Shown here: piece after piece, positions 25,191-64,000 of the stretch
Layout of the letters: each line of letters opens with the position of its first letter
Position numbering within the stretch: the first letter of the stretch is position 1
Assembly (NCBI GenBank): GCA_008632985.1
Contig: QPGO01000085.1
Span: 124,001 to 188,000 of the forward strand
Length of the DNA stretch: 64,000 nt
Direction of reading: 5' to 3'
DNA from: Psammoneis japonica
Lineage: Eukaryota
Notes under the pieces: generated by a model
Seen by the model: the letters and a program-made list of their open reading frames with translations, nothing else
Databases searched by the model: none
What the model was told of the DNA's origin: nothing
Translations under genes and position numbers: made by a program

Positions 25191-25199
25191 AAAAAATGC

Positions 25200-28100
25200 A
25201 CCTCACTTGCTCCCAATCTGAAGGGTTCCCGAGTGAGGTCGGAGGATAGGTTGAAGTAGACGCGGGTGCTTCAAGGTGCCATGAACGAAAATTGAACAAC
25301 ATTCTGTTGAAGACCAACACCGTGCCAAAAGATGTGAAGAATCCTGCATTGGTTCCAAACCCACCAGCACAAAGGAATTGGTGCAAGTGGATGCAAAACA
25401 TAAGAACAGCATGGATGAGAACAATTGGAATGACTGGACAATCACAATGTCCCAGAATTCAGCAAAACAACATGAAAACTTTGCCAAATGGGAACAAGCA
25501 GTGAAAACTCACCAGACAGTCCAATCTTTTGCAGGGGGGTTTAACTGTCTTTGCTGACATTGTCACTCTGTTGATCCACTCTGTCAATCCACCTTGTTTG
25601 CATGGCCCAAAGTTGCACAGTTGATGCCAGCCCCAGGGACTCAACTTCCAACAGGCTGCTGGTCAGAACTGCTGACTCTGATGGTGATGAAGAGAAATCT
25701 CACTGATGAGTGTGCATCAGAAGAAGCCTTTTCAGTGGGGAGTGTTCCTGTCATTGATGACACAGTGAGCCCTCAAGACTTTGGCAGAATTGGAATCTGA
25801 TGTGCATGCTGAGTCTTCACGGCTCACACTGAGAATGGGCCAGAATGAGCAACATGTGTGTGGCACGTGTGGATGTCTGCATGCTGAGTGCAGCTGCCAA
25901 AACCATCAAGAGAAAAAAAAATTCACTGATGACACAAAATGGGCATTGCTGGCCTCATTTTTGTGGGCTTTTCCAAGCCCTTGCAGCAAAGAGATGGGCA
26001 CTGTGGGGGCTCAACTTGGTTGGTTGAGCACCAATTTAACCACCAGTGAAGTTGAAGCCGTCAAGGAAGCTCAAGACAAAAAATGTCCAGGGGGTGGTGG
26101 AACCACTTGGGGGCCCTCTGCTGCTGGCTGAAAGTGCAGCCCTTGTGACATCCCCCCAATGATGCCCCAATGGCCATTCAACAGAGAGCGGTGCTCTGGC
26201 CCAAGACTCTGTTTGGTGCTGGGTGCTTCATGGCATGGCCTGAAAGAACCGCCACACCATTGCTGTGCAATGTGCGGCATGGAGGCTGAGCAGTTGTGAT
26301 GAGCCTTGAGACTCAAGGTGTTGTGTGGCACAGTGTGTTGAAGACCCAGTCTGAGGCTCAAGCCTGCAGCTCTTCTGTGGAACATGGGGCAAATTCTGGT
26401 GCTCTCACTGCCTTCAGGAGAGATCAAGGACAGCTGCATCTAGCTTGCAGGAAAGAACCCATCAGTCAGAGACAATGTTTGCATCTGTGGGGTTGAACAT
26501 GTGGAGATGTTGAGAGAATGGAGCCACCAGTCCTGTGTCCTTCTTGATTGAGCCAGCAGCAAGCAAGGGTGCAGAAAATTCACACAACAGAGTGCGGACA
26601 TGGCTTCTTCACCAGGTGTGCACAGTGTGTCTGACAGAGGTGATTTCAACATTCAATGAGCTGGCAGGAACCTTCTTTGTGCAACCCTGGATGAAAACCA
26701 GTGTGGAGAGAAAGGACATGATGGGTTGTGGAAAGGAAACTGGGCACATGTTTTGGGGCTCATCAAGAATGGAGAGGGTCTGCCAAAGACGTGTGAGCAG
26801 GTGGACAAGGTGTGGAAGATGACACTGTCTTCCCAGACAGAACATCAGGAAGACTTTCCTGTTTGAGTGGGGGCTCTGTTTTAAGAGGTGGTCATCAACA
26901 AATGCCTCTTGCATGGCCTCCTCCCCCTGGGATCCTAGAAGCAAGCTGTGTGTCTCCCATGAATTGCAGCGAATCTCCTGCAGAACACAACTTGATGAGA
27001 GGCATGATGTGGCAGCAGGGTGGAAGCTCCATTTGACTGCCACAGTGACAAATCACAGGACATTGGCTTGTGCACAGTTGGTTGTTTGTCCATGTCCTTG
27101 TCACCACACATGTGTGCCTTTGTGATGCCACAGGAAGGAGGGAGTGTTGCCATGAGGCTGTGTGTTGGACCAGTCATTGTGGGATTAGCTCCAGACTCCA
27201 GAACCCAGAGGCTGGGGTGGATGAAGATGAGGTTACCACACACAGAGTGCACCAGCACTGGCACTGCAAATGGTGCCATCACTTCAGTTTTCATTGCCTT
27301 GGAAAGTCAAATTGTCTGGGAAAGGACCTGCAATCACCATCCTGCACTCACAAGTTCTTGAGTGGGGCTTCCAAGACTGCTGACATGGACAAGATCAAGA
27401 GGACATGTGTGGAACTTCAGAAGGAAGTTCACACAGACCCAGAGTGGACTGATTGGCCAATCAGTTTTGTGGAGAGCACTCCCACAATGCATTGGTTGTG
27501 ACTTCCTCCCCTCTCACTTCTGAACTCACCTTTCATTGTCAGATGGTCATGCAGCTGCTGTCAGGCTCAAGTCCTGCATGTGTGATGTGTTGCTGCTGCT
27601 CCTTCCTTGTTGGGACACATGTGTGCAAACACAGCTGGTGGCAGCACTCATCTGATTTGGATCTTGTTGAGACTGGGGGTCTGTGCCACTTTTGTTCATC
27701 ATCAGAACAAGAAATGACACATGTCTGCCATCATCAAGCTCAGCCATGACCTTTTTCCTGCAAAAACAAGGTTGTTCACAGGCACAATCCTGTCTGACCA
27801 TGTCAGTGCTTGTCTGGCAAGCAACCCAATGGAGTGCCATGTGGTCACATTGCCAAGTGTCCCTTGAGTGAGCCATGAGCCCTGGCACAGAAAGTTCCTT
27901 CAAGCATTGTGACAAACTTCATGCCGCACCTGCTCTTTGTGATTTCCTCTGCCTTGCACTCAAAGCTTGGCTCCATGACAAAATGGTGAGCAGGTTTGGT
28001 TTTGACCCCATGCTGTGCAATTTGTGGAGAGCACAAAGTGCTGTTCTTGGACAGCATTGGATGTTCTGTGGGGGCATGCCCAAGCTCTGGGACACAGCCC

Positions 28101-28560
28101 AAACCCTTTGAATGCATGAAACTGGAGCCCTCCAAAAGCACCAAGTTGGCTCCTTCATTTGGAAATCATGGCAGGAGTTGTGGGAGTTGCATGAAAAACA
28201 AGTGTGTGGCCTCAAAGTTGTCTCAAGGAAGTCTTCTCAATGTCACTTTGTCAAGGCTGAACTCATGGCTGTGCACAACAAGCACCAAGACTGTCTGGTT
28301 GAGGACATCAATGTGATTTTGGACTCAGCAGAGGAATGCCACAATGTGCTCACTCTGCCACATGGTGAAAATGCAGAGCTGGGTCTCTGTGGTCAAGCCT
28401 TGTCTCAGATGAGCTCCAGCTCCAGGTGGGACCTTGCACTGCTGAGCTGTGACACCAACAGTTTTTCGGATCATGCCGCATGTCACTCGTGTGCATTTCT
28501 GCATGACTTTGGCAGAATTTTGCATCATTTTGCAGTGCAATCATTGGGCAATCCATTCAA
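25200..28560 (+). mobile_element. Heavily mutated non-LTR retrotransposon (LINE) remnant: RT, possible RNase H, C-terminal Cys/His region
   Basis: FTDDT (RT xxDD motif) followed by a TTGG(A)L..EKC-like stretch, then KLSHDLFP...EPWHRKFL-like remnants. Near-total loss of TpA and CpG. Ends are approximate. Confidence 0.5.
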
Positions 28561-31279
28561 CAACTTTTGATGTTTTTTCTTCTGTGCCATTGTCAAGGGG
28601 GGTCATCCCTGTGTTTGTCCTGGAATCACTGTTGCATTGTTTGAACAAGGTTGTTTGCACCAGCATTCATTTTTGAGTGCAAAAATTGTTCACATTCACA
28701 CCCAATTGTGCATGAAAATAAGAACATCAGGCAACGTGATCAAAGCATGACAATGACAGCAATCTTGACATTTCTTCAAAATGCAGTGGTCCATCTTCAA
28801 ACTTGTACATCCATGGGCTGGAACGCATCCTCAACAAAAGCATCTTGTCAGCTGCTGTTTCTGTTGGGGGCACCTGCATCAGGTGACACCAGGCCAACTC
28901 TGGCTGATCTTTTCCCTTCTTCCACCACACATCAGTGCACTGGAAATGCGGGTCAACCTGCACTGGCTTTGCCAGTCAATGCTGGTGTGGCAGCACTTTA
29001 AACTGGGTTTGTGATTTCTGAAATTGCGCTTGTTGCATGATGAGTTGGGCTCTCAAATGACATGACTGTGGATGGCAAGGCATTGGATGCAGGACTCAGA
29101 TGGATCCATTGCAGCAGTCACCCAGCCCTGTGGTGAACTGTCATGGCTGAGACAGACCCCTGATGGAATCATCTGTGCACCTCAGGGTTGTGGAGAAGGC
29201 TGGTGGGAATGCTGTGGAACCCAGCCACTCTGACCCCAGCACACCCACTGTGGATGGGTCCTTGTTGAGCACAGAGGCCAAATGAGTGAAAGACCCCACT
29301 GACAGCAATCTTTCATGCTGTGCGGTCATTGTTGACAAATGCGCAGAAATTGTGCAGACCAGCACCAAGAAAAGCATTGGACTGTCTGTCCATCCACCCT
29401 CAGTGAATTGCAATTCTGCAAAAAATGGACTTGACTGCAAACTGATCAGGTGCATTTTGGAACAACACATTTGCAGAAATGCATCTGTCAGTTGGCAGTC
29501 AAGTCCTTTTTTGCACAAGTTTTGAGAAGACAACAGCTTTGGCACAAAAATGTGTAGATTCTGCTGACGTCCTCAAGTGATTTGTGCATTTTGCATTGTG
29601 GGTCATTTTCAAAAGATTCCTGCTGCAATTGGACAGCTCAAGATGTGAGCAGGACCTTCAAGCAGAGCAGAGGTTGGTTGGATGAAGATGCATGTGATGA
29701 TTGAATTTGGAGCAGAGACAACAGGGCATGACTGGGGTTGTGGCAAGTGTTTTCAGCACACTGGATCCACACAAAGGTGGGCACAATGTTCACATTGTTC
29801 TGTGACCACCAATTGTCCATTTTGGACACTCAACACACACATCTTGCAGACTGGTTGTTGGTGGAGAGACAGTTTGCACATGCTCCTCATGGTGGTCCTC
29901 ACATGGAAGACTTGCTTCTTGGGACTCCTCAAAACAAAGCTGTGGCTGCTTTGCTGGAGAGCTGGCAAGTGCACACTGTCTCTTGGGAAAATGGAGGATG
30001 TGTCAGAGGAACTGGGGCATCAATCATGCTGCAAGAGACTTTTCCACACAGGTGGGGTGTGCTGTTCAACTTCTTGTGGAAAGAGTGAGGCAGCCCTTTG
30101 CACGTGACAGGGTTTCAGCTGTGCAAGTGAGTTTGTGCATTGCAGCAGCTTGGTTTTTGCATGCAGTCAGCTCTTTGCACATGATTGCACAACACAGCTT
30201 TTGCTTTCAAGCCATGCAGCTCACAAGAACAATGCCAACATCAATTGTCAACAACATTTTCTGTTTTGGCACATGTGGTGGTCTCTGCATGGAGACTCTT
30301 TTGCCACATGGATGACAGTGATTGGTGCGCTGTTTTGTCCATCAACATTTTTGTTCACACCCTCTCAATGTGCTTGTTTGCCACCAGTCAACATGCCACA
30401 CTTTTCCATGCAAGCACCAGCAGGACTGTCCTGTGCAAGAATTTGGCATTGTGCCAGCCAGCCTCCTTGGGCACTTTGGAACATTCAGCAGTTGTGCCAT
30501 GATGATGTAGATGCCACAGGTGTCAGAGGGGATGCTCCGTCATGCCTTCATTTGGGAGTGACATCACCATCACAGTGGCTCCTCTCTTTGCATTTTCACT
30601 CCCATTGGCCATGCATTTGCACTGCACAATTCTGCATCCAAGATGTTCTCACATTTCTTGTCTCATTGTTTCTTTGAATTCTCAGGACAGAGTGCCTTTG
30701 CATTTTGTCATTTCTTCCAAGTGGCGCTGGCTGTTTTCCACATGGATGGCTGCAATCCAGGCATTGACTGCAGCAATTGTTTTTCTTTTGTTCCTCCAAG
30801 ACCCATGTCAAGACTTGTCAGTGCTTTCCTCATGTCAAGTTCCTTGCAATTTGGTCATCAACAACACACAACAGCATTGTTTGAAGCTGTGCTTCTCCTC
30901 CTGTGCCTGCTGGCGATTTCCAAGTCTTTCTTTTCAGACAAGATGCACCCTCACTTCAAGATGACTTCTGGATCAAGAAATGGCTCTTAAGCCCTTGCAC
31001 CTTTCAGGTTGAATTTTGACAAAGCCCGCATTCATTTGAAAACACACACCCTTTCTTTGCAGTGTTTTTTTTTGGCATCTTTCCAGCTGGGTGTTTGTCC
31101 ACTCTGCTCGACCACAGCAGCAGCCATGCTTGGCTCTCTGCACACAACAAGCACTCAGCTCATTCCTGTCTAGACTTAGAATGCTTCCACAGTCATTGTC
31201 CCTGCCACATCTTTGATGTGCTGGGGAGCGTGGGTCCACAACATTTTGGTTTTTTCAGTCAACACACATCACACACACA
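28560..31279. repeat. Degenerate repeat-derived DNA, family not identifiable
   Basis: TpA- and CpG-depleted, CA/TG-rich composition; no credible ORF. Confidence 0.5.
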
Positions 31280-31284
31280 CTGAC

Positions 31285-31560
31285 TGACAGAAATTGAAGG
31301 CAAATGGCAAGAATTCAAACAACAACTCCTTGCTGCTGTCTAAACAGCAGATGAGTCTCCGCTCAGAGACCGTCACAGGAGCCGAGAGACGTGCAAGTCG
31401 GCACAATCGGGCCACTGTTGTCATTCTTGTGAGCCTTGTGGCTCGAAAGCAAACTACATCGCGCGTGAACGCGCGGAACTAAAGCACACAAAACTGTGCG
31501 CGGCAAACTAAACAGCGCGCGACACTTCGCGCGCATCCAAATCCTGTTCAAATCCTGTCA
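31285..31560 (-). repeat. 3' LTR of the copia element (mutated copy)
   Basis: Aligns without gaps to 37887-38162 with 11 substitutions. Confidence 0.95.
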
Positions 31561-34230
31561 CTCCCCAGTTTGCTTGAGGAGCTACAGAAACAGATTCGAC
31601 TTCGGATGGAATGAAGTTCCAGAACATGAGGGGGCGGAGGAGGTCCCAGATTTGGGAGTAACCCCAATGCTTGCTGAGAATGTCAGCAGGGTTGCGGGAG
31701 CCTTCGATGAAGTGGAACTCAAGGCAACCAGAGGCAATTGCCTCACGCACACGGTGGAACGACAGTGCGGTGTGTCGCTTGTGTAACTTGGAGTGCGGGA
31801 TGGTGGCACTGTCTACAACCGACTTGTTGTCACCGAACATGTGACTAACGTTACGGATCGGGACACCAAGGCAGCGCAGGGTGATGCGCAGGTCGACAAT
31901 CTGCTCAACACAATTCCTTGCGGCAACAAATTCAGATCCGTAGGTTGCAGTTTCCACGGTGGCTTGTTTCTTGGAGAACCAATCAGCCGGGAATTTGTTG
32001 AGGAAGTGGAGCATTCCCATGACAGAGCGTCCGGTGAGCATGCAATGGTGCAAGTTTGCATCGACGTAGTGGGTGGTAGTGACGAACTTGCCAAGGGGCG
32101 GTGGAGCGTCCTTCGGGATCATCTCTTCTGCTTCACCACACACGGAATGCATCCATTCATAGGCCGGAGCAGGGAGATCCGAACAGTCAGGCTCTTCCGT
32201 GCGAACGCGGAGAGCACCGTGTCGCATCTTGGAGAGGTGCCCACACACGCGTTTGGCACGATCCAAGTGGCCTTGACGGGGCGCAGCTCGGAAGCTAGAG
32301 AGTGACATGACAGCCGTGGTGATGTCAATTCGACCAAGGGACACTGCCCATTGGAGAGAACCAACAAGAGACTGGAACTTGTGAATGCCATCGGGTCCCA
32401 GCAGTTCGGAAGTGTCCAGTTCGGGGTGGTCACCCTTCTCTAGAGGTGACAGGGCGTTGGTGGCAGGTTTCTCCCCAAACAGTCGGGCGCAGCTGTCGAC
32501 CATGCGCTCGATGTACTTGCGCGGAGACAGGCACAAGGTTCCGTCGGGGTCCCGGGAAAAGTTGCAACCCAGATGGAACTCAATGGGTCCCGCACCCTTG
32601 AGCTTGAACTTGTGCTTTTCCGTGAGAGTATCGACGAAAGATTGGGGGTCCTTCATGGCAATGGCGAGGTCATCCACATAAACGGCAATGCATTCACAGT
32701 GGTCGCCGTTCCTGCGCATCCAAATGTCGGGTTCGGCGCGGCAGGGGAAGAAGCCTTCAGCTCGCAGGCAGTCGGCGAAGCGCTCGTGCCAGCGGAGACC
32801 GGAGCTGCGCAGTCCATACAGTGCCTTGTGGATGACAAGGATGTGTCCTTCGAGTTTGCCAAATTCGGGTCCAGCTACAATGTAAAGCTTCTCCTTGGTG
32901 GTGGCTTCAAGGCAGGCATTGCCAATGTCGGTGGCCCATGTCTCCAGCTCGTTGAGTTCGGCCAGGAAAATCATCAGCCGAAGGCCACGGAGGGAGACTA
33001 CTCCGGAGTAGACACTGTCAACAGGTGCGTCCGTGAGGTGCCCGTTGGCTGCGAGTCGTGCCTTGTGGCGACCGTCGTGTTTCACGTCGTGCACCAGGTG
33101 CACTCGGATCTTCTTGTGTCCCGCAGGAGGAGTGGAAGACTTGAAGGGCCCGCAGTCATGGAAGACTTCGTATTCGTCGAGTTGGTCCATCTCGAGATTA
33201 GTTGCGTCTCCCCACTTGCGGTTGCCGTTGCGTTCGTCCAGTGACATGGCGTGTTTGCAGTTCCAGGGAACTTCGCATCCGCACTTGTAGCGAGGTGCAG
33301 TGCGGAAGGAGCGAAGCTTGGCTTGGTTGGCCATGCGAAATAGCTTCTTTTGGCACCTCGCGACAGTGCGGAACCGCTTCCAGCCATCCGTGTCAAGGAG
33401 TCCGTTCTCTCGTGCATGGATGGCACAGGTGACGGGGTCATCCTTGGCGATGATGGCAAGAGGCTCGGACGTGATCTCCCCACTTTCCCATTCAAGCATG
33501 ATGTTGTAGCTTGAGCCTTTCCAGGTTGGGTCGTGAGGCTTCAGAGGTCCTTCGTGTGATGCGATGCGTCGAAATTTCCAAATGGTGGTGTCTTCGTCTT
33601 CTTGCTCAATGTGATTCATGATGTCATTGCAGGCAAGGACTTCCTCGTATTCGTCATTGTTGACAGAGCAGACGAACTTAGTGAGCTCGGGATTGCCGTT
33701 CACTTTCCATTCGTGGTCTTCGATGGCCTTGACGATGCGAGCTCTGTGGCGTTGTCCATCCTCTTGTGGCTGCATGAGGAAGGTACGTCCAATGATGTCT
33801 TGCGGATCGAAAACTGGCATCTTGGGTGTCCTGATCTCCCCATCAGGAGAATCGACGGGGTTGTCGTCATGGCGAGATTTGATGATGGGTTCAGGTGGCT
33901 CCCCATCAGGAGGATCAAGACGCAGATTTCGAACGGCAGGATCGGGGGTAGCGGAGCGAACGTTGGACCGGTGGAGGATCTTCTGAGTCTCGTCAGATGG
34001 GATCTTGAAGGTCATCTGGTGGCCGACGTGCTCAGCAATGCCAACAAAGCGTCCACGCAACTCACGGGATTCGGACGGCCAATCGGAGTCATCGAGGTGG
34101 AAGTGCACTGGTTCCCACCAGTGAAAGCGAAGCAATGGGCTGATGTCCGGGGTGGATCCAGTGAGAGTCTCGAGGGGCGTGCGCCAGTGGAGACGTGGGG
34201 ACGCTGTGTGGTTGAGCATGAAGCACACGC
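31508..34230 (-). pseudogene. pol: Copia pol remainder: integrase C-terminus, reverse transcriptase, RNase H
   Basis: Recognisable RT/RH motifs with many Tyr->Cys/His replacements. Joined out of frame to the upstream ORF. Confidence 0.9.
31561..31570 (-). other. Polypurine tract of the copia element
   Basis: AACTGGGGAG on the minus strand immediately before the 3' LTR. Confidence 0.7.
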
Positions 34231-36947
34231 ATCTGATCCTCGAGTGTGTTGACAAACTCTTTGTCCGTCTCAGTGCCGTAGACATCGGTGACGGTAGACT
34301 CGGTGCCAACAAACAGTTGGGCGCTGGTGCAACCGGAGTCGACGGCCGGGGTGTCGGCGCAAACGGTGTCAGTGGCGATGGGCTCGTTGCGGCGGTGCAC
34401 ATTAAGGGCGGGGTTGGGTGATTTGCAGGCCTTGCGAAGGTGTGCACCGGCGGGCATGCGGGCGCACTGCGTGGTGCAGTCAAAATTGCGACGGACCGCA
34501 TCGACAGGTGGGAAGCCAAAGTGAGGCCGAAGAGACTCGAAGGGGGGGTCCTTGGGCTGTACAGTGCGCTCCGGAGGTGGAACGTCATCGCCATTGGGGT
34601 CAATCGCACGCAGATGACACTCGTAGAACACGTCGTCGTTCGGAATGAGGTGATCATCGAGGGCGGATGCGTGATCGGCAGACAAGGAAGCGGACAAGAT
34701 GGTCTCGTTGACAATGACACGGTGACGGCAGTTGCCGTGTTCGTCAAATGGGTTGGCAGTGGGATCGTCCTGCAGGTCAGAGATCGCGTCGCACCACTGG
34801 TCGTCGTCAGTGACAGAGTGATCGAGGACGGAAGGGTCCCATGTGTCATCACCGGTGAGGATGACATGGGGCAGTGTGTCCCATTCGGCGTCAGTGTAAG
34901 GTCGCATGGCAACATGAGGCAGGCCAGCCTTGATGTCAATGGGGATGACACAGCCATCAGGAGTGGCAATGCGTTGCAAGCCGTTGGGCACCCTGACAGA
35001 GCGATCGTTGACATCCTGTTTGCACCATTCGAGCTGGCCGCAGGAATGGATGGTCTTGCCCTTTCCCGTGTGTGCGCACTGATGGAGGATGGCGATGACG
35101 GGACCACGCTGGGTCTCAATGACGGCACCAGCGGTGACAATGGGGATGTCCACCAATTGATGATCGTCAATGCCCTGAACGTCGACTTGGCGAGAGGTGC
35201 GTGCAATGACGCGAACGTCGTCGCCAGCAATGCCGCCGTTGGCCCCACGATTGACTAGAGCGCCAGTGCGTGTGGAGCGATGAGCAGAGGCAGAGCAAAT
35301 GACATTGTGGTTGTTGACGCGGCGGCAAGTGCGGCCGTTAAGTTCCATGTCATCTGCAGGAGCTGGTGGGGCAGAGGAAGCAGCGGATGGCCCCGGTCGA
35401 CTGGCATTGGGGGCTTGGTTAGGTGACAACAGACGTTGCAGATCACCGGGTGGCAGTGGCTTGCGCTTGGTGAGGTGCGCCAGGATGGGATTGTCCGAAG
35501 TGGCGTCCACATGTGTGGCGGAGTCACCACAGTCAGCAGGAGTCGTGTTGGACAAGTTGACATCACCGTCACTCCCAAGGTGTTGGTCGTGAAGGTTGGC
35601 CGTAACAGACTCATGGCAGTTGCTGGCTCGCGGGGTGCGGTTAGGCGGACGAGAGTGCTCAAGGATGATCGCCTTGGAGGAATCGGGCAACGAATCCCAG
35701 AGCCGTTGGTGGTTGGGAGGGAGACGTCTCCATTGGACACCGGTGAGGCTGGGACCGCGGGTGTGGGCAGCATTGGCTTGAAGGACGTCAACGTCGCTGT
35801 CAATGTCGTAGAACACATCGTCGGACGGTTCCTCGGAGCAGACGTCGTGTGCGTGTGTGGCGCGTCGGGGAGCTCGAGGTGTCGTCTTGGGTTGAAACGT
35901 GCTGTCGCACTGAGCTGCCGCAGAGAGGAGCAAGCCACAGCATTGATCGCATGTGAGGCTCTTGCCACTCTGCGTGCGATGCTGATCAGCTTGGTTCTTG
36001 ACAGCACGGAGTTCCTCGACAGGGTGCACGGCATTCTCGAGCATGACGCGCTTCTGTCCCTCAGAGAAGTGGTCACTGGCGGGGATGAGTGCCTCGCACT
36101 TGCGCAACTGATCTTGCCAATGAAGGATGAACCCGTGGGTCGGACCTTTCCAAGTGCCATCACCAAGACGTGTGGTGGTGAGGTGCGTGAGCAGGGTGGA
36201 GGACTCGACAGATGCACGGGTGGAGGCAAGCGCGCACTCAGACAAGGAGCGGCAGACGGTCTGTGTGTCAGAAGACCCCACATTTTTGCGAATGAGAGCC
36301 TTGCCCTTGTCGGTGAGAAGGATGCGTTCGAAGACGGTGAACATGCACTTTTGCTGTTCAGCAAAGAGCAGTTTGTCTTCGGGGCTGGTCGGTTTGTACG
36401 ACGAGTCTAGAATGCACTCGACGTCTTGGGCACGGGCTTGTGCCACAAGTGAGGTGTGCCAAGTGTGCCACTGCTTGTCGGATTTGAGAGCCGTGAAAGC
36501 GGTGGGATCACGCTTGATGCCTCGCTTGAAGTCTCGCACCGGGTCGCGTGCCTTGGTCGGGTTGGTGACATGTGGAGGTGCAAGGGGTGAGCTGCCGATG
36601 GACACAGAGGACATGCAGTCCGGGCTGAGGCGGTGGGCAAGGAACTCGTCATGCGTGAACAAAGAGGAGTCGTTGGCAACGTCAAGGCCTTTGTGTGCTT
36701 TGACAATGCACAGGCTGACCAGTGCTGCTGACATGTTCTTACAACCACGGGGCAAAGGGATCACATCAGTGCCGTTGTCGCACTCAAGCGAGTCGATTTG
36801 GGACGGCATGAACGTGAACAGTTCCTGATGCGAGTCCGTGCCGTCTTGGGCCAAAGCCAAACGAAGAGGACTCCCAGCACCTTGGGCAAGCACAGTTCCA
36901 ACCACGTGCTCGAAACCATCGGTTTGTTGCTGACGAGTGAGAACCAT
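34231..36947 (-). pseudogene. gag: Copia gag-protease-integrase N-terminal ORF
   Basis: FKRGIKRD gag motif. Protease motif reads ALVNRGANGG, where catalytic D->N arises by CpG->CpA. Integrase EPIATDTV...EFVNTLED is then truncated. Confidence 0.85.
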
Positions 36948-37869
36948 GGCAGACAAAAGTGGTGTCAGTGCAATCAATTCTGGTTGGGAAGCGAAGGTGG
37001 ACTCGAAACTTGGGTGAGAATGGACTTGACTTGAAATGGACTTGACTTGAAATCTTGAACTGTCTTAAAATCAGAAGTCGCCGGGCTTTGTTATCCCGTT
37101 CGTTGTTGAGTGCTAAACTTCCTGTCCGGTCCGCAGAGTTGTGCCGGCACGTCCGAACCCGCAGCCAGCGGTGCTTTGGGTTGCTCACGAGCGGAGCAGC
37201 GGGTTGCAAACCCCTGCAGGTAAGCTGACCAGAGGTGGACAAGACCCCTGAACCGTTCTTATTTTGTGTCGGTTGGATTTCCCGATCAGGCTGGCCAGTT
37301 GACGCAGGCGTCAGGCGCTGTGGACGAACAAACAAACGCGGGAAAGCACCCTCGCCCCAACGCAGGCTGCAGTCACGGCTGCTTGCTCTCACAGTCGTCC
37401 TCGTGGACCTAGTAGAACTGTAGAGCACCAGTAGTCCGGGGTAGATCAGGTACAATGGACTCGGTGTGCTTGTAGAGTGGTGGCAAAACCGTGGTCCGAA
37501 GGGTGGGTACAGGTTCTTGGCCGTGAAGATATGTATATATATATATGTCTACAGCGATGAAGATCCTTGAATATGTAGGGTTCTTGACCGTTAACCGATG
37601 AATAGGTATATCAAGGGATGAGGATCAAGGATAGACTTGGATATGACCGTTGAATGTATGTCTTCAGCGATCGAAGGTAGTATAATCAATCCAGATATCC
37701 AGCGGTAAGGAGACTTGACGGTGACGTTAACTTCCTGCCGATGCCCTGGTATTGGATGCGCGTAGACTTGCCGATGTATGTAGAATATATACGGAGGTCC
37801 ACGTAGAATTGAAATAGCGTCGTTGGTAAATCAACGACGACGATGGCGGTTGCTCAATGGGTTGACAAT

Positions 37870-37886
37870 GAGCAAGACTGTTAATC
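37870..37886 (-). other. Putative primer-binding site complementary to a tRNA-Asn anticodon arm
   Basis: No TGG after the 5' LTR. Plus strand reads GAGCAAGACTGTTAATC, i.e. a CT-GTT-AA anticodon loop with GA/TC stem. Confidence 0.45.
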
Positions 37887-38162
37887 TGACAGAAATTGAA
37901 GGCAAATGGCAAGAATTCAAACAATAACTCCTTACTGCTGTCTAAATAGCAGATGAGTCTCCGCTCAGAGACCGTTACAGGAGCCGAGAGACGTGTAAGT
38001 CGGTATAATCGGGCTACTGTTGTTATTCTTGTGAGCCTTGTGGCTCGAAAGCAAACTACATCGCGCGTGAACGCGCGGAACTAAAGCACACAAAACTGTG
38101 CGCGGCAAACTAAACAGCGCGCGATACTTCGCTCGCATCCAAATCCTGTTCAAATCCTGTCA
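37887..38162 (-). repeat. 5' LTR of the copia element (TpA-retaining copy)
   Basis: 276 bp, TG...CA, followed by TSD CTGAC. Confidence 0.95.
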
Positions 38163-38163
38163 C

Positions 38164-47310: not shown

Positions 47311-47322
47311 GGTGCTGCAAAT

Positions 47323-51950: not shown

Positions 51951-52535
51951 GCAGACAGACACTCAAGAAGCAGTCAACTTCAAACAAGCAAAAAAATTCC
52001 AAAGACATTGTAGAACAGCAGTGGATAAAATTGCATCATTTAATCCAAAATGTAACCACTTGGTGGACAATCGAGTCGTTGCTCGTTGCCGCATTGTTGA
52101 GTGTGCAGCACACTGCACCACCAACTTAAAAAGTCTGGCACGTTTCATTTTTTTGCACTCTGGTGTCAACTGCTTCCATCTGAAAATCGTCTGTGCGCCA
52201 GATCCACCCGAGTTCTTGTTGTCTGCGCCATTGAGCAAGTGCAAGGCATGGCATCAAGGTCAACTCGACCGCCGATTTGGAACGAGCATGTGGCACATGG
52301 CTTGCCTTTGGGTTCCAGGCCAATTTTGTGCACATTCCTTCTGTTTGCTGTGTGACATCAATGACCACTTCTTTACATTGACAATGAAGGACTTGTTTTG
52401 ATGTCATTGTCTCTGACAACCTTGTCAACTGCCTTTCTTGCAACCGCTGGATTTCGCAGATCTTTTGTTGCTTGGCATCTTTTTTCGATTTTTCGCGCTC
52501 GTGGCACGCTGTCCCCCATTTTTTAAATGTCCAGG

Positions 52536-52767
52536 CTGCCCTGCAAAAGAACTCCGGAAAACCAAATTTACGCAGAAGGAGTGCCAGGGCCCAAGAAGTG
52601 GAAATGCCAAATGAGTCCGGAATGTCCAGAAACTGCATAGAATCCATCGTAGAATCAGCACCAGGGACGTCAAAAAATCACGAAATTCCGGACTTGTTTG
52701 GCATCTCCATGGTCCCTGGCACTTCTTCTGCGTAAATTTGGTTTTCTGGAGTTCTTTTGCGGGGCAG
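52536..52767. mobile_element. MITE, 232 bp, ~85-bp TIRs, 4-bp TSD CAGG
   Basis: CTGCCC(T/C)GCAAAAGAACTCC(G/A)GAAAACCAAATTTACGCAGAAG at both ends, inverted. CAGG at 52532-52535 and 52768-52771. Confidence 0.85.
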
Positions 52768-53652
52768 CAGGTCTCCATTTGCAGCAGGGCCCCAATGGCA
52801 AGGATTTGTAAGTCTGTCAGGATGCACAAGCTCCAGCACAAATCCACGCGAGAGCCTGTTGCCATGAGTGGTGCGAACACCGTTAAACTTTGCACTGGAT
52901 TTCACGGAGGCCTACGTCGGGCTTCTGACGGGACGAACTGAACATTAAAATTTGTTAAAGTGTGAACAACTTTCATTTCCAGAAATGTTCAAAAGTTCTG
53001 GCGGAAGAATGACTGACGCCATTTTTCCAGAACTTTTGCTTTTTGTGCACATCAACAATTGAAAGCATGTTTGCACACAATGACGTCGGAGTTCGCACCG
53101 TCAAGATTGCTTGTGAAGTCGTCGCCGAGCAATGGACTTGTGAATCCTTGCCTGGTCTAATGGGCCGTGGCAGCGCAGGCAGGGCAAGGCAGGGCATGCA
53201 TTCTGCTCATCGTACAGCACCTTTTACCACATGGACAGGGCCCTGCTCTCTAGAGCCCCACTCGGGCAAAAAATCGAACCACTCAGTGGTTCGCAACTTG
53301 CTCAGCGTAAAACTCGCAACTGACACAACAAAGCAGCACCTGCACAGATGCAACCTTTTAACAGAGGCAAAAAGCCATTGTTGTCAATGCATTGTGTTGT
53401 CAGCGGCCACTCGTGTGTGGAGCTCGGTCGCCGTCAAATCACCGTCATGGTCGTTGTCGGTGATTTTCTCACCCCGTAGAAACAACCGCAGGGCAGCACC
53501 AGAAAAAAATGTCAAACCATTGAGCGGTTCGCTACGCAGATAAGCACTGGGAGCCCCGTGCGTGGAATTGGTGAACCATGAGGTGGTTCGGGAGGACAAG
53601 CGCAGAAATGTGCGTGGCAATTTGCACCAGAGGGTCGAATGCAAAATTGAAC

Positions 53653-53853
53653 CAAGGGATTGTACACCAAAGTCTGGGAGCAACGTGTTGTTGGACAGAC
53701 CGCCTGTCGTCGTGTGGAATTTTGTGTTTGGCAGGTCACCACACACACGCCAAAATCTTGTGAGGACACACACTCACACAAAGCCTCGCTGCGCTCCTTG
53801 CACACAAGGCATTGTGTCTCTAGAGCTAGAGCAGAGGTGCCGTTGCTGCACCG

Positions 53854-53884
<31 letters not shown>

Positions 53885-54720
53885 GCCGGCATTGTGTGAT
53901 TTGAAATCACATCAACATGTAAATGAATTATGTCATCTGCAAGCAATGACTGTTGGTTTGGTGGGGTTGCTGATGCTGACACCGTCAACCTGGAATTTCC
54001 AAGCGGGGTGCAATCTGCCATCAGCAGCAAAGACATTCCTGATGACCGTCGTGACGAGTCACTCTTAATTGAGGCCAGACCAGGACAAAATTGAGGACAA
54101 GGACTGTGACAACTTAGTGACTGATGCATCACAATTGAACTTGGGAGAGGAAGCCAGTGGTGCTGAGACAGACGCTGCAGAAGAAATTCTGCCTCGATCG
54201 AGCGATTCCATCAAGGTAGCCTGTGGTGTGGTGTTGTCGGCAGCCTGCATCCCAAAGTGATCTGAGTCGAACCGAAGATCAAAATTTGAAATTTATGTAG
54301 AACTACACTGTGTTTCTACGTAGACGGAGGAGTCAGAAAACAACCAAAAACACTTCAAACCATGGCGCTCTTTGGACGCAATGTTCTCGAAATCTAACGG
54401 GGCGCGTGAAAGCGTCTCATGGCCGCACAGGCACAAGTTTCTCTATTAAGCTTAATTACGGTCGAGACGCAGTCGTGCGCCCCACTAGATTTTGAGAAAA
54501 TGGCGTCCGGAGAGCGCCATGGTGCCCCATACTTCACCGTGTTGTTTCGTCGTCAAAAGGACAGATTTCAGACTATTTCTACCCACGAATCAGCAATCGT
54601 GACTCAGAATTCAACACGACGGTAGGGAAGAACCCGGAAGCTTTCCTACGTAGAAAATGTACTAAGAGTCTGCTTGTCTTCCGTTTACTGTACTCCCAGA
54701 CTTTAGTGTATAATCCCTTG
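53653..54720. mobile_element. Non-autonomous P-superfamily-like DNA transposon, ~30-bp TIRs, 7-bp TSD ATTGAAC
   Basis: Termini CAAGGGATT...AATCCCTTG; ATTGAAC at 53646-53652 and 54721-54727. CANRG ends with a 7-8 bp TSD fit the P superfamily. Confidence 0.75.
54359..54523. repeat. Internal long hairpin, ~60-bp imperfect arms, 45-bp spacer
   Basis: accatggcgctct..ggacgc...gcgtctc (54359-54418) is inverted against 54464-54523. Confidence 0.8.
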
Positions 54721-55070: not shown

Positions 55071-55380
55071 CGACAGTACAGGGCCCACAGTACAGTACTA
55101 CAGTATGAGGAGAACAACGTGACCGTTGCGAGAGAACATAGCCGTTAAAAAGAGAATATCGGCATGTTCGTCTTTCAATAAATAATAGTTGCGTTTTAGG
55201 CGATTCTCGTGTCTCAAGCATGCCTGTTTGCCGCAGCAAGGCGATTGGCGATCGATCCGATTTTTCTAACTCACTAACTGTCGTACCGGTACCGGACCTA
55301 TGATATCCCCTAATGCCGCATTTCACTCAAGTCTCTCTGTTGAATTTTCCGCAGCATTGTTAGAGGATAAGTGGACAAGA

Positions 55381-57021
55381 ATGAAAGCTATCTCTCATAC
55401 CTGTGACTTCACCGACGAGGCCCATCGCCATCATGCAGCTGGTGGTGGTACTGAGGGCCACCAGACCAGCAGAATGCTGAAAAAGAGCTCTCTAGCTGAA
55501 GACCTTAATGCTGAGAGGCGTAAAGTCGCAATGTTAGATGATGTATTGAAAAATGTTCGTGAGGAGATTGCGCTCTTGAAGGCAAAGAAAGAACAAGACG
55601 ATTCACTTGCAGCTTCCTTGATTGATCAACGTGGGGAGGAGCTAAGTGAAGCGCAAGCGATACTACGAGAACAATTGACAGAACTCAACGCCAACAAGAA
55701 AACCATTGTCGCTCTTCAGGAGGGCTCGGAGATGAAGGACGAATACATTGTCAACGTTCTCAACGACCCAGAGCAGCATTCTTTGTTTGAAGCGAAAGTA
55801 GCAGAATACAGGGAGTCCCGAGCTCTTTTGGAATCCGAGCGTATCGAGAATGCTTTGACCGTGGAAAAAACGCAGGATGAAATTGACGCTTTGAATTCCA
55901 AGAGTGCCAAGTTTGAAAATGAGATTGAGCGTGCTGAGATGTTATCCTCTCTTGAAGAGGCTCGCAAATTAATCAAGGAGCTCAACGAGGTCGCATCTAA
56001 ATTAGAGAAAGAAAGAAACGAGCTTGATTCTGCACTTGATCTCGAAAGAAAGAGAGTCGAATCTGCCAAAGCCAAAGTCGAGCTGCTGGAGGTTGCAGTT
56101 GAGACCGCACGTGACGAGAACAAGCGCTTGAATCGCGAGTTTAAAGACAATGTTGAATCTGTCAATGCAAAAACTAGGGACAAAGTCGAGCTTCTGCAGG
56201 TTGCTGCTAAGGAGAAACGTGAAGAGATCAAGCTCTTGAAGCAGAAGATTCAAGAGAGCACGGAATCTGTAAAGTCGACAGCCCGAGCCGAAGTTGAGCC
56301 CCTTGAAGCTGCCTTGAAGGTCGAACGGGAGGAGGCCAAGCGCTTGAACGAGGTGATTGAAGATATCATGAAGAAAAAATCGGGGATCGAGGCGACGCAC
56401 GAAAATGTAACCCATAAGGTGCAAGGCCTTCAGAAAGCTATCGATTCGAAGGACGCCTCCACGACGAAACTGAAGAGCAGCATCGACAAGTACAAGAAGG
56501 CCCAAGTCGCCCTAGCTGTCAAGGCTGTCAAGTGTGAAGAGTCGAGGCAACAGATTTTGAAGGAACTAAGCGAGACGAGTAAAAAACTCGAAGCTACCAA
56601 GTGGACCGCTCATGGCCTGGAAGAAAAAGTGAAAGCTGCGAACAAGAAGAACGAAGTCCAAAACCGTCGTATGCGCAACATCAACATGATGGCTTCGTCT
56701 CTGTTGTCCAATGTCAACGGTGTTCTGCAGCCCGAAGAGCAGCAGAAGGTTCCGGTGCATGGCGATGGTTGTGACGGTCCTTCAATCACCGATAAGGCCG
56801 GTATTGAGGATGCGAAAAGCCACGAAAATTCCGACTTCGTACTTCCGAGTGACCAGCGCGACGATGTCGCCTCGAAAGAGCCCACCGTGGACGAGGGCAC
56901 TGAGCATCCCAACATGCGTTTGGCGCAATGCGACACGGATACCAACGCGAAAGTAGTCTACGATCAGCATCTGGCTTCATCGACCCACAGTGACCTTCTC
57001 ACTTTCGAAGATCTTGACTGA
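55381..57021 (+). CDS. Coiled-coil protein, paralogue 4
   Basis: Intact ORF with KEQDDSLAASLIDQRG, VELLEVAV repeats and KAQVALAVKAVK. Start codon uncertain. Confidence 0.8.
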   Translation: MKAISHTCDFTDEAHRHHAAGGGTEGHQTSRMLKKSSLAEDLNAERRKVAMLDDVLKNVREEIALLKAKKEQDDSLAASLIDQRGEELSEAQAILREQLTELNANKKTIVALQEGSEMKDEYIVNVLNDPEQHSLFEAKVAEYRESRALLESERIENALTVEKTQDEIDALNSKSAKFENEIERAEMLSSLEEARKLIKELNEVASKLEKERNELDSALDLERKRVESAKAKVELLEVAVETARDENKRLNREFKDNVESVNAKTRDKVELLQVAAKEKREEIKLLKQKIQESTESVKSTARAEVEPLEAALKVEREEAKRLNEVIEDIMKKKSGIEATHENVTHKVQGLQKAIDSKDASTTKLKSSIDKYKKAQVALAVKAVKCEESRQQILKELSETSKKLEATKWTAHGLEEKVKAANKKNEVQNRRMRNINMMASSLLSNVNGVLQPEEQQKVPVHGDGCDGPSITDKAGIEDAKSHENSDFVLPSDQRDDVASKEPTVDEGTEHPNMRLAQCDTDTNAKVVYDQHLASSTHSDLLTFEDLD

Positions 57022-60521: not shown

Positions 60522-60589
60522 AATGGTAAATAATCCTGGGCTTACTCAGTAAAGACTGCTTGTGTCTTTCTTTATGAATAAGCTGTCAT

Positions 60590-61990
60590 TTACTGTTTGG
60601 CTGCTTGATGTTTTCTCATGTTCAATTCCTCCAACTTCTTGTCCATTTCATCTGCAATCTCTGTGGAGTGAAATTCCTTTTGGAAGAGGTGTTTGATTGT
60701 CACTGCCCTGTCCCTTTCTGCATTCCCCATGGATGCTTTCTCTTTGCATTTTGAATCCTGACCATGTCCAAGCAGCACCCATGGTCAGAGAGAAAATGAG
60801 CATGTTCAAAAACATCTCTCTTTTCCCCATTCTTGATGGTCACTCTCATCTTGCCCCATCATCCCACATTTGTTCACACTGGTGGTGTGTCATCTGTCAT
60901 TTTTGCTGAGAGCAAATTTCCTTTGGATGTTGCTTTTGCAGCTTGCAGCCAGCCATTTCATGCTGACTGTGGAGAGGTGCCAACCTTGCTTGTGAGTGTG
61001 TCACCACTTTTGGAGTGCTTCTTCTCAACCATCCAGGGCCAACCATCTGCTGGGCTGGTGCAGATGTTTTGGCTTGAAGTGTTCCTTGGTCTTGATTTTC
61101 TTTTTCTGACCCAAACAAAGCCCAGCAACATCAAAATTTTTCAGCCAAGCTGCAAAAAGAGCTTGCGCAAGAAGACCCTTTCTCCTGCTGCTGTTTGCAG
61201 CAACTTGGTGCACCACAGAAGCTCTCATGCCCCCCACACCCGGCGGCAGCACTTTTTGTGTGCTGAGGCATGCAGTGTGGATCTGCCGCCAGTGCAGCAG
61301 CACCACACACTTGTGACTTGCATGGGGAGCTTGTGCTGGGAACTTGTTGCACATTTGTGGTGGCAAAGATGAGCAGCTCCCAATGCAGCAGGATCACATT
61401 AAATATTGCACACAACACACAAAGCAGCCCAAAAGCCACTTTTTGTCCAGACTGCACAAGAACATCTGGCCCACTTTTGCACCCGCACCACCTTGAGATG
61501 TGCTTGGCATTGCTGTGTTCCCATTTCTCTTCTTTGTCTTTTTTGTTCGGCATCATCGTGTCTGTTGGTCAAGGAGAATTCAAATGAGCAGCAGCATTTG
61601 AGCACGATGATTCAAATGAGCAGCATTTGAGCAAAGGAGCAGCATCGGAGCAAATGAGCAGCATTTGAGCACTTTTGAGCACATTTTGGCACTTTTGAGC
61701 ACTTTTGAGCACAACTGGCAATGATTTGAGCACAATTGGTGATGTCATGAGCAAATTGGCGATGACATCAGCAGAAGTGGCAACAGCAAAATGAACAAAT
61801 GTTTCAAATTGAATGAAGACAAGAGGAGCCAAATCATGCAGTGCATGCACACTGCAGCCACAAGGACACACAGGATTTGCAGCATCTTCATCTTGAGGAT
61901 GTGCCGCCTGAGGCAGAAAGATGTTTGTTGGTGTGCGCGCCGTGCACTGTGGCATTGATTTGAATCTTGTTTTGGCAGACTCATCTGTGA
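60590..61990. repeat. Degenerate repeat-derived DNA including a short tandem array (TTTGAGCAC-like, about 61580-61735)
   Basis: TpA- and CpG-depleted; repeated gagcacttttgagcac / aaatgagcagcatttgagca units. Confidence 0.55.
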
Positions 61991-62049
61991 CACATCCACT
62001 CTCTTGATCACAGACCAGTGGTTGCTTGGTGGTGGTGACAGTTGATTCA

Positions 62050-63920
62050 GTGGTTCTGAAGGGACAAGCCAGCACCAACTTCCCATGTGGGACAGTGCCG
62101 GCTCATCTGGCTGGATGGAACTCAAGATCTGCAAAGGCAGAAATGAGTTGCACATGCAACTGCAATGCTCATGCAAGTGTTGACAAAACCACATGCTTCA
62201 GAGTGGGGTCTTTGCCATTTCTCTGAGAGTTTGGCAACAATGGCATGCAGGGCAGCTTTTCTTCTTTTCTGATTGACCCGTCACATGACACAACCAAAGG
62301 GGCAAAGTGGCATCGTTGGTCAAGGCAAGGCTTGAGGCACTTGCACTTTTTCTCCTTTTCATGGGCCTCTGGGACTTTTTCTGGATCTTTCAAGTGATGC
62401 AATTTTGCATCCGTGTCTGCAACTTGGACATCAAACATGGCATCAGTCAATCTTTGTCACCAACCTCACACTGGAATGTCACCTCGGTCACCTGTCTTTT
62501 GACTTGCGAAGGTTCTTGGAGACATTGGCTTGCCCACTCTTCTTGGTGTTGTCCACTGAGCTCCTTGAGTTGTGGATGGGGTTGGTTTTGAGGTTTGTCA
62601 CATGCTGAAGAGGGCTTGGTGGATTTGCCAAAAAGATCAGCCAGCTCGTCTCTGACTTTGTCATGTCAAGAGATGACTGGGCCACTTTCTTGCACTCCAG
62701 TGCATGTTGTGTAGAAAATTTGCATCCATGTCCATCACACTCCTGGGGCAGGTTGGGAGGTGTTTCAGCACAGTGCACATGAAGGGCATCATGGAATTCG
62801 TTGCTCGACAGCTCCACTCCATTCACGATGGAAGGGTGGACAGACAGCCAAGCACCTGTTTGTGTGCTTCTTCGCGTGGCTCTGGCTTTCTTGTCCTGCA
62901 GAGTGCTGAGGCCATTGCAAAGTTTGCACTTGTTTGCAACATTCTTGTGCTCCAGAATGGTTGACTTGACTTCTTGGAGGTTTCTTGGTGAACCGCCGAT
63001 TGGAACTGAGCGCTCACCAGGGTGCTCGATTCACAGTTGTCTGGGGCAGACTTTGTGGGATGAGGGATTGAAAGTCCAGAAAATTTGATGGGTGGGGCGG
63101 ACAGGGCAATCCTGGGATCATCTTGGTCAACGTGTCATTGAAGAGTGCCGGCAGGAAGTGACAAGTGATCGCTTCCTCACTCTCTGCAAACGAGTCACAC
63201 CGCAGTTCTTCGCCACACACTGGACGCATTGCCACTCATGTTGCAGAGATTTTTGAATCCCTGCATGCACCATCTGGGGACACTTTGCTGCAATGTTGGC
63301 TGGACCTTTGACTGCGCTTGTCCACTTCTCGGACTTTTCCTCCATTCATTTCCTGAGTTCTTTCTCCCCTCGCCGATGAAACCGCCACATGGCGTCTGCC
63401 TCTTCCAGTGGTGACAGAGAAGCCAAGGTCACCAAAGTGACACTTTGCTGCCTCCAAGTTGCAACTTGTGACTGCTGAGATGTTCTTCTCATTGTCGTCG
63501 GGGTGACATCTGACTTGTGAACCTGGGGGGCTCTCGCAAGCGCAGGAAGAATGCTCTGATTCTTTCAAACCTTCCTGCGGCAGCTGAGTTGTCAGCACAC
63601 CATGGTGTGAACATGCCAGGGAATTCTTCATTGAGTTGCTTGACTGGTGGCAGAAGTCCCAGTCCGCAAGCAACCATTGCAAGCAGGTCGCCCTGCGTGA
63701 CACCTTCCTTGCGAAGAGGAAGAATGCCGTGCCGAAGTGTCCCCTCGGATGACTGGGACACTCCAATGCTTGCAGCAGTCAAATGTGAATCGGGTGCCAG
63801 AGGGCCAGATGTGTCCAACGCTGCAGAGCATTGGGATCCCATTCTCCTCGTTGAAGCCGTTGAAGGTGTCGATGAAGAGGAATCCGAGTTCGTCTTCGAA
63901 TTTGTTCTGACACAAAGAAT
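62050..63920 (-). mobile_element. Decayed CRE-clade non-LTR retrotransposon (RT, CCHC, restriction-like endonuclease)
   Basis: GFLFID..NGFNE, EGVTQGD, PWCADN (from YADD), ELSSNEFHDAL...CDGHGCKF..HALEC, FDVQVADTDAK...EKEKKCKC..PC...HFAPLVVSCDG. Confidence 0.85.
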
Positions 63921-64000
63921 TGACACGGGATCCACGGGTGCACCCGGGAATTGCGGGATGAAAGGGGAAAGGGGCAAATGGGAATGTTGGGAAAGCAAGG

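Follow-up and report, generated by a model that had tools for sequence, protein, structure and literature searches.

The region analysed here is a 64,000-nucleotide stretch of the genome of the diatom Psammoneis japonica (NCBI GenBank assembly GCA_008632985.1, contig QPGO01000085.1, positions 124,001 to 188,000 of the forward strand), referred to below as the window and numbered from its first letter. The window's initial 25 kb consists of ordinary genes, mostly intron-poor. Beyond 25 kb, three coiled-coil gene paralogues and a few other genes are interspersed with long blocks of odd composition that are nearly devoid of the dinucleotide TA and in part also of CG, and one of these blocks is split by a Copia retrotransposon. 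Comparison of the two long terminal repeats (LTRs) of this element demonstrated that TA had been converted to CA or TG. The blocks, which carry no strand, and a second retroelement remnant are given below; ORF stands for open reading frame.

25,290-31,279, no strand: fully depleted block, left part, split by the Copia insertion; from composition, with no Pfam domain in ORFs of at least 55 aa
38,168-40,850, no strand: fully depleted block, right part; from composition; contains an old direct repeat
43,430-47,000, no strand: fully depleted block; from composition; Pfam scan without a domain
47,001-54,250, no strand: block with TA lost and CG partly kept; from composition; 123-bp tandem repeats at 51,485-51,959
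60,595-62,800, no strand: fully depleted block, starting about 80 bp past the stop codon of the adjoining gene
62,801-64,000, no strand: block with TA lost and CG partly kept, continuing past the window end; 0 TA in 1,200 bp
62,491-63,030, minus strand: RVT_1-type (non-LTR-like) retroelement remnant, C-terminal domain; from relatives and column analysis

Dinucleotide content was expressed as observed over expected (o/e) in sliding 1-kb windows. At 25.5-31.0, 38.5-40.5, 43.5-47.0 and 60.6-62.8 kb these windows gave TA o/e of 0.00-0.07, CG o/e of 0.00-0.11 and CA/TG o/e of 1.7-2.0. Pooled, the fully depleted blocks (25.3-31.28, 38.17-40.85, 43.45-47.0 and 60.6-62.8 kb; 14,417 bp) held 32 TA (o/e 0.033) and 70 CG (o/e 0.085), while the flanking genic DNA (33,752 bp) held 1,344 TA (o/e 0.572) and 1,819 CG (o/e 0.97). 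From the flanking density 574 TA and 777 CG would be expected in the blocks (Poisson P of about 1e-197 and about 1e-236, respectively). The longest run without TA was 1,485 bp. These counts agreed with an earlier note on this DNA, which had reported TA and CG depletion at these blocks beside genes that keep both dinucleotides, and its estimate of about 7 TA in 25.44-28.56 kb was exact (7 TA and 13 CG in 3,121 bp). The same note had described 43.5-54.3 and 60.6-64 kb as almost free of both; this held for TA but not for CG at 47.0-54.3 and 62.8-64 kb, where CG o/e was 0.58.

Only three of the ten symmetrised dinucleotide classes differed between blocks and flanks: TA (0.03 in blocks and 0.57 in flanks), CG (0.08 and 0.97) and CA/TG (1.87 and 1.11). 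The remaining classes (AA/TT, AT, AC/GT, AG/CT, GA/TC, CC/GG and GC) were about equal, with AA/TT at 1.19 in both. The total of pyrimidine-purine steps was about 110-135 per 500 bp both in and outside the blocks, as expected from transitions among TA, CG, CA and TG. Block edges were sharp (about 50 bp) and lay 80-100 bp away from gene ends, and the adjacent genes were normal. As a side observation, TA loss in the Copia element and in all depleted blocks removes TAA and TAG stop codons and adds none, leaving many long overlapping ORFs on both strands.

The depleted DNA occurred in three states. TA and CG were both nearly gone in the fully depleted blocks; TA was gone and about half of CG kept at 47.0-54.25 and 62.8-64 kb (TA o/e 0.11, CG o/e 0.58); and TA was low with CG intact in the Copia element at 31,284-37,410 (TA o/e 0.19, CG o/e 0.91). 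No CG-poor but TA-normal stretch was found anywhere in the 64-kb window. As the CG-intact Copia element is nested inside a block without TA and CG, and as no CG-poor, TA-normal region exists, TA loss came first and was fast, and CG loss came later and was slow. CpG decay is therefore a process separate from TpA loss, as had been suggested earlier.

The Copia element lies on the minus strand between perfect 5-bp target-site duplications (TSDs). Its parts were as follows (RT, reverse transcriptase).

31,280-31,284, no strand: left TSD, CTGAC, a perfect match to the right copy
31,285-31,560, minus strand: 3' LTR, TGACAG...CTGTCA, TA-poor; from LTR alignment
31,561-37,410, minus strand: internal region; from RVT_2 and composition
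34,092-37,064, minus strand: gag/integrase frame within the internal region
31,511-35,254, minus strand: RT/RNase H frame of the internal region
37,411-37,886, minus strand: 5' leader, spared by TA loss; from composition
37,887-38,162, minus strand: 5' LTR, TA-normal (14 TA, 20 CG); from LTR alignment
38,163-38,167, no strand: right TSD, CTGAC, matching the left copy

The element was identified by an RVT_2 domain (E=6.4e-28) and by 276-bp LTRs that are 96% identical and have TG...CA ends. The integrase and RT frames are separated by a frame change. Its protein had 1,557 relatives at E<=1e-30, and the aligned relatives were 58-69% identical. An exact 20-nt LTR pattern searched in viral_contigs gave 0 matches.

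The perfect CTGAC TSD indicates a single insertion, so that the two LTRs were identical at the start. Over 279 aligned positions they now differ at 11, and at ten of these the 5' LTR has TA where the 3' LTR has CA (nine) or TG (one); the 11th is a G/T transversion. Ten of 14 TA sites had changed as compared to 0 of 20 CG sites (Fisher P=8e-6) and 1 of 265 other positions. The enrichment of A>G/T>C changes at TpA that had been predicted was thus borne out by 10/11 LTR differences.

The direction of change was also read from the coding sequence. The RT-RNase H part was aligned with 60 homologues, and columns with Tyr in at least 70% were taken as conserved Tyr columns. At the 26 such columns the Copia element had Y 10, C 10, H 3, F 2 and W 1, and four Tyr positions that are invariant in 60/60 homologues were Cys or His. 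Change from Tyr to Cys or His at conserved columns is polarised as TAY>TGY or TAY>CAY. Other conserved residues were kept (W 13/13, F 18/20, H 20/21, R 32/34, L 45/47, G 42/43). Further coding changes at TA were I>V (3/5) and one each of T>A, I>M and V>A. Selection keeping essential Tyr was considered and rejected, since Tyr survival (10/26, 38%) was about the overall TA survival and the four invariant Tyr were gone.

Copies repeated inside the blocks carried the same mark. The direct repeat at 38,169-38,335 and 40,434-40,601 showed six double differences (CA against TG) in 163 aligned bp, and the 123-bp tandem repeats near 51.5 kb showed nine in 340 bp. No such doubles occurred between the coiled-coil gene paralogues (two segments, 1,838 aligned bp, 195 mismatches). 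CA/TG doubles are expected if two copies turned an ancestral TA or CG independently into CA and TG, respectively, and the repeat copies inside the blocks also showed CG/TG and CA/CG differences. The LTR pair, these doubles and the conserved Tyr codons together upheld the earlier proposal that TpA becomes CpA/TpG, the reverse of repeat-induced point mutation (RIP).

Changes in the Copia element were biased by strand. Sense TA>TG outnumbered TA>CA 9:1 in the LTR and about 16:4 in the coding sequence, in total 25/30 (P=3e-4). The 5' end of the element, made up of the 5' LTR and about 470 nt of leader (37,411-38,162), was spared, with 55 TA (o/e 1.02), and its boundary near 37.41 kb was a step from 2 to 19 TA per 200 bp. 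An APOBEC-like cDNA gradient behind the spared 5' end was rejected, as the sense change is A>G and the boundary is a step. Among the surviving TAs, A at -1 was scarce (0.11 vs 0.27), T at +1 was scarce (0.06 vs 0.25), and TTAA made up 25/140. The +1 base preference read from these sites (poor in ATA/TAT, rich in TTAA) was not reproduced in the polarised changes of a metagenome relative of the element, L059, and is given as an observation only. Three of the ten LTR changes contradict a simple flanking-base rule.

Relatives of the Copia element were compared at 78 related metagenome loci. Whole-locus TA o/e was 0.21-1.0, mostly 0.5-0.95, and the closest relative (L001, 72% aa identity) had TA o/e of 0.84; only 6 of 1,658 500-bp windows of relatives fell below 0.15. 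As the relatives are TA-normal, the TA poverty of the window's Copia element is derived and not a family trait. L059 (microbial-mat metagenome contig, 1-2,651), which comes from another organism and environment, had normal TA over roughly its first 500 nt. From about 700 nt to the 3' end TA was depleted and CG was kept, and TA was absent from about 1.5 kb to the contig end. Its private changes included TA>CA/TG in 35 of 152 cases (18 T>C, 17 A>G). The L059 boundary falls within the RT domain, so tract edges are not tied to any constant landmark of the element, and this speaks for a process that acts in place.

A Copia polyprotein from a metagenome assembly, P0194, 64% identical to that of the window, kept 12 of 23 conserved Tyr and had C 5, H 4 and F 2. 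At the same Tyr columns the other 16 homologues in the alignment had 0 Cys and at most one His. On this residue pattern, P0194 is the same footprint in a second source. Five other relatives (L003, L036, L041, L048 and L052) showed strong CpG depletion (o/e 0.10-0.33). TA was normal in the first four (o/e 0.50-0.86), and L052 had TA o/e of 0.43 with its first 400 bp without TA. CpG-depleted but TA-normal relatives indicate that CpG decay without TpA loss is possible in other hosts and that the TpA process is host-specific.

The bases themselves were assessed with one public sequencing run (X1), whose contigs were compared with the window over 16.5 kb. Of 31-mers sampled from 25,300-31,200, 86% were present in the run. 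A single X1 contig of 3,337 bp (word depth 57) spanned 25,109-28,442 with eight substitutions and three indels relative to the window, and at least seven more contigs spanned the remaining single-copy parts. The DNA at 25.1-28.4 kb was single-copy in X1 at 90% likeness. At 28.4-30.0 kb, X1 depth was 366-8,149 as compared to 57, indicating repeated sequence. Summed X1 depth over the Copia bins was 64,000-174,000, a figure that is not a copy number but suggests a very abundant Copia family. Among the differences listed between window and X1 in the blocks flanking the Copia element, 13/24 interconverted TA or CG with TG/CA, in both directions, and five of these 13 hit window TA/CG sites, which make up about 1.4% of positions and are over-represented among the differences. 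Another 181 differences were counted over the whole 16.5 kb compared. TA/CG sites in the blocks flanking the Copia element are still polymorphic. The depletion is one of real bases and not a base-calling artefact; a long-read artefact, which the earlier note had named as a possible refutation, fails because the X1 contigs reproduce the sequence.

The identity of the blocks was assessed by domain and protein searches. An exhaustive protein search with the ORF at 62,491-63,030 gave 664 relatives at E<=1e-3 and 84 at E<=1e-10, although a word-indexed protein search among longer proteins had found none. RVT_1 lay upstream of the matched domain in 4/8 long relatives, in one of them above the Pfam cut-off. 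Conserved columns showed R>H twice, R>Q once and Y>C at the sole conserved Tyr, and likeness to relatives ended past about residue 116. Pfam scans of the depleted blocks covered 73 ORFs of at least 110 aa (three from the Copia element) and 150 of 190 ORFs of 55-109 aa (the remaining 40, from 53.6-64 kb, were left out); outside the Copia element both returned only sub-threshold chance matches. A tblastn comparison of 49 full-length Copia homologues with the window gave no match outside 31,284-38,164. A transposon origin is demonstrated, by likeness to known elements, for two parts only, the Copia element (RVT_2, LTRs, TSD) and the RVT_1-type remnant. The earlier claim that every block derives from or adjoins transposons is borne out as to derivation only for these two; the other blocks showed no transposable element (TE) domain. 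As a separate observation, the plus-strand frames at 50,300-52,000 contain 123-bp tandem repeats and repeats of about 108/216 bp that encode Gly/Asp/Leu-rich units, and this region resembles a decayed repetitive gene more than a transposon.

The genes outside the blocks were of ordinary composition where assessed; the coiled-coil paralogues, the first of which served as a control, were as follows.

22,770-25,194 (paralogue entry 23,298-25,070), plus strand: control coiled-coil gene (paralogue 1), normal composition, Lys/Glu-rich
40,938-43,333 (paralogue entry 41,357-42,916), plus strand: coiled-coil paralogue 2, 86% DNA identity to paralogue 1
55,300-57,021, plus strand: coiled-coil paralogue 3, Lys/Glu-rich

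No Pfam family scored above cut-off for any of the three. A different depleted block begins about 100 bp beyond the end of homology of each of paralogues 1 and 2, and paralogue 3 is followed by ordinary genes before any depleted block. The zeta-carotene desaturase gene at 7,961-9,751 (minus strand) has 82-86% identity to named proteins of Cylindrotheca, Seminavis and Pseudo-nitzschia. An intronless ORF at 13,627-14,628 (minus strand) encodes a periplasmic phosphonate-binding domain of bacterial type, present at full length (PF12974, E=2e-38); it lies in a diatom nuclear context and may be an old gene transfer. The ORF at 2,643-5,684 (plus strand, 1,013 aa) had no Pfam match; it contains internal repeats of 216-225 and 432-435 bp (3,630-4,915) and a strong CA-over-TG skew (0.4-0.47), yet its TA and CG are normal. 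Inverted repeats were found at 52,535-52,768 (64-nt arms, 91% complementary) and at 54,359-54,523 (60-nt arms, 82%), the latter just beyond the right edge of a depleted block.

The pattern was compared with known systems of targeted mutation. Fungal RIP changes C to T mainly at CpA, creating TpA and removing CpA/TpG. The window resembles RIP in its saturating context-specific transitions, its restriction to repeats or selfish DNA, its sharp edges and the destruction of coding capacity, but here TpA is removed and CpA/TpG created. With TA o/e of 0.03 and CA/TG o/e of 1.87 the spectrum is the opposite, and RIP was rejected. Diatom TEs are methylated, and decay of 5-methylcytosine (5mC) at CpG accounts for the CG>TG/CA component, with the R>H, R>Q, R>C and R>W changes that belong to it, as it does for the CpG-only loss in L003, L036, L041 and L048. 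It cannot remove TpA, and it was slower here (0/20 CG as compared to 10/14 TA changed in the LTR). APOBEC3G leaves a mutation gradient along retroelement cDNA. As with APOBEC3, hypermutation of the Copia element was strand-biased, with the 5' end and 5' LTR spared and the body and 3' LTR hit; unlike the APOBEC signature of G>A on the sense strand, the sense change here was A>G. ADAR differs in that it edits RNA, lacks strict UA specificity and cannot make the LTRs of one copy differ.

The closest match was found in the chlorarachniophyte Bigelowiella natans. In mutation-accumulation lines of this rhizarian, two integrated viral regions mutate at about 1000x background (Mettrop et al., bioRxiv preprint 10.64898/2026.01.13.699255), with 230 of 231 de novo mutations A>G or T>C, all of them on TpA according to the preprint text. 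Hypermutation occurred in some lines only, and an ADAT2-like deaminase was put forward as the agent, as a hypothesis (10.64898/2026.01.13.699255). The earlier note knew of no described system with such a spectrum; on the preprint's account, the same one acts on integrated viral DNA of B. natans (10.64898/2026.01.13.699255). Features of the B. natans type found in the window were changes that are almost only A>G/T>C transitions, TpA only, delimited regions, and clustered TpA depletion with CpA/TpG enrichment. As far as the preprint describes them, both cases consist of A>G/T>C changes at TpA giving TpG/CpA, both are restricted to particular stretches of foreign or selfish DNA, and in both many depleted sequences resist annotation.

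The two cases also differ, again going by the preprint text. The host here is a diatom, a stramenopile, and the identified targets are retroelements (Copia and the RVT_1-type remnant) instead of integrated viruses. Depletion reached o/e 0.03 in the window, whereas the hypermutable region of nucleocytoplasmic large DNA virus (NCLDV) origin in B. natans had Rho of 0.45 and the virophage region was still undepleted. Mutations in B. natans were seen de novo and those in the window were inferred by sequence comparison. Diatoms, CpG and strand bias go unmentioned in the available preprint text (10.64898/2026.01.13.699255); in the window CpG decay accompanies TpA loss, and the strand bias and spared 5' LTR and leader seen here are likewise not reported in that text. 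No report of a TpA-depletion pattern in diatoms was found in the literature searched. The spectrum in the window is the second case of the kind described in 2026.

Taken together, we consider it very probable that repeat or foreign DNA which had been silenced was altered in place by two processes, a fast TpA-specific transition and a slower CpG decay. The first would be limited to particular regions and strictly TpA-specific, giving TpA>TpG or TpA>CpA (A>G on either strand), and would clear TA while neutral sites diverge by only about 0.4%. The second would be the usual loss of CpG, presumably methylated, to TpG/CpA at a slower pace. Since both end in CA/TG, old blocks are left without TA and without CG. 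What is demonstrated is the spectrum of the TpA process and the direction in which it runs, how fast it is compared with CpG decay, that its boundaries are sharp and that the bases are real. As to the agent, there is about an even chance that it is adenine deamination in DNA by an ADAT/TadA-like enzyme; Pfam detected no deaminase domain among the scanned ORFs of the window. Targeting would follow chromatin, small RNA or transcription, and the TpA process may serve as a genome defence. An orientation-aware mode, possibly co-transcriptional or RNA-guided, is suggested in one element by the strand bias and by the sparing of its 5' LTR and leader.

Four other explanations were weighed against this one. 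Blocks that were born poor in TA and CG, as foreign or TE sequence that avoids both or has evolved to escape a defence, would need no host mutator; most copies of the abundant Copia family are TA-poor alike, and joint CpG and UpA avoidance occurs in RNA viruses. We regard this origin as highly improbable, as the nearest relatives are TA-normal, the LTRs of a single insertion differ at TA sites, CA/TG doubles separate repeat copies, four invariant Tyr are now Cys or His with Tyr survival (10/26) near overall TA survival and no sign of selection, and an o/e of 0.03 is far under any reported avoidance. A sequencing or assembly artefact, in which modified bases were read as C or G, receives almost no credence. 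The few indels between window and X1 are as in an unpolished long-read assembly, but the X1 contigs reproduced TA/CG-free sequence over kilobases at a word depth of about 57, and differences ran in both directions (window CG with X1 TG, and the reverse). Misreading on two strands would moreover be expected to break a k-mer assembly about every 20 bp (CA vs TG), and one contig spans 3,337 bp. A miscoding modified base, such as 5-hydroxymethyluracil (5hmU) or 5-formyluracil (5fU) made at TpA by a TET/JBP-type enzyme and pairing with G, or Pol-eta-like patch repair at methylated DNA, is rather unlikely. 5fU can mispair, and Pol eta has a WA motif. T>C at TpA equals A>G on the opposite strand, so that sequence alone cannot tell which base was attacked, and TA and CG losses share domains, as could be expected of a single enzyme that acts on 5-methylpyrimidines (T, 5mC) at YpR steps. 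The Copia element, with TA o/e of 0.19 and CG o/e of 0.91, indicates however that the losses are uncoupled in time and that no damage at methylated CpG is required to trigger the loss of TA. About 70-80% of Copia TA sites were converted, which would lie far beyond any polymerase error rate, and AA/TT was undepleted (1.19 in blocks and flanks), leaving no WA-type signature of A>G at both TA and AA; the Pol-eta-like candidate of the earlier note is accordingly disfavoured.

Editing of RNA instead of DNA would place the A-to-I change at UA of retrotransposon transcripts, made by an ADAT/ADAR-like enzyme and fixed through reverse transcription and integration. Copia changes are mainly sense A>G (9/10 in the LTR and an inferred 16/20 in coding sequence), a family-wide TA-poor state would follow from copying edited RNA, and tRNA-type and ADAR-type adenosine deaminases prefer a 5' U, as the discussion of the B. 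natans preprint also has it (10.64898/2026.01.13.699255). Against these points, one template should yield identical LTRs, and the two LTRs differ at ten TA sites although the TSD is perfect. Non-coding direct and tandem repeats in the blocks resolved independently to CA or TG, TA sites are polymorphic in single-copy block sequence, CA/TG skew is nearly nil in old blocks, and the B. natans targets are, in the preprint's account, single-copy integrated DNA viruses mutating in culture (10.64898/2026.01.13.699255). RNA editing is thus very unlikely to be the source of the pattern.

Several points weigh against two processes acting in place. The evidence is comparative throughout and drawn from a single 64-kb window, and for the blocks at 25.3-31.3, 38.2-40.9 and 43.4-54.3 kb an origin from TEs or foreign DNA is unproven. 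The library type of X1 is not on record, and X1 may be from the same sample as the assembly. Across its many copies the Copia family seems to be poor in TA, as only 87 C>T or G>A variant places (share of at least 10%) were found over the 16.5 kb of the X1 comparison. A large part of the TA loss may therefore go back to a source copy that had been mutated before, or independent copies may have converged on one state. The strand bias comes from one element and is partly confounded by codon context, and L059 was without it (18 T>C, 17 A>G). Gene conversion by an unmutated copy is another possible source of the spared 5' LTR and leader.

Targeted hypermutation as a defence is known mainly as C>T, through RIP in fungi and APOBEC in animals, and an A>G, TpA-only form has been reported once, in 2026. 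The window extends this process to a second and ecologically dominant SAR (stramenopiles, alveolates and Rhizaria) lineage, the diatoms, which include genetically tractable species, and shows retrotransposons as its targets. Leads to the mechanism come from the strict restriction to TpA, the bias by strand, the sparing of the 5' LTR and leader, and a course that does not depend on CpG decay. The process also sets a trap for annotation, as TE remnants are stripped of Tyr codons and of two stop codons out of three, so that domain searches miss them and spurious long ORFs arise. Should the agent be a natural DNA adenine deaminase, it would be of interest to base editing. More tentatively, and in our view doubtful as a whole, an orientation-aware, probably co-transcriptional or RNA-guided DNA adenine deaminase of diatoms may strip TpA from newly silenced retroelements while sparing the promoter-proximal 5' LTR and leader, and may together with Bigelowiella represent an old SAR-wide genome defence by TpA editing. 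If true, this would set an adenine system beside RIP and APOBEC as their counterpart, and a naturally occurring DNA base editor specific to TA.

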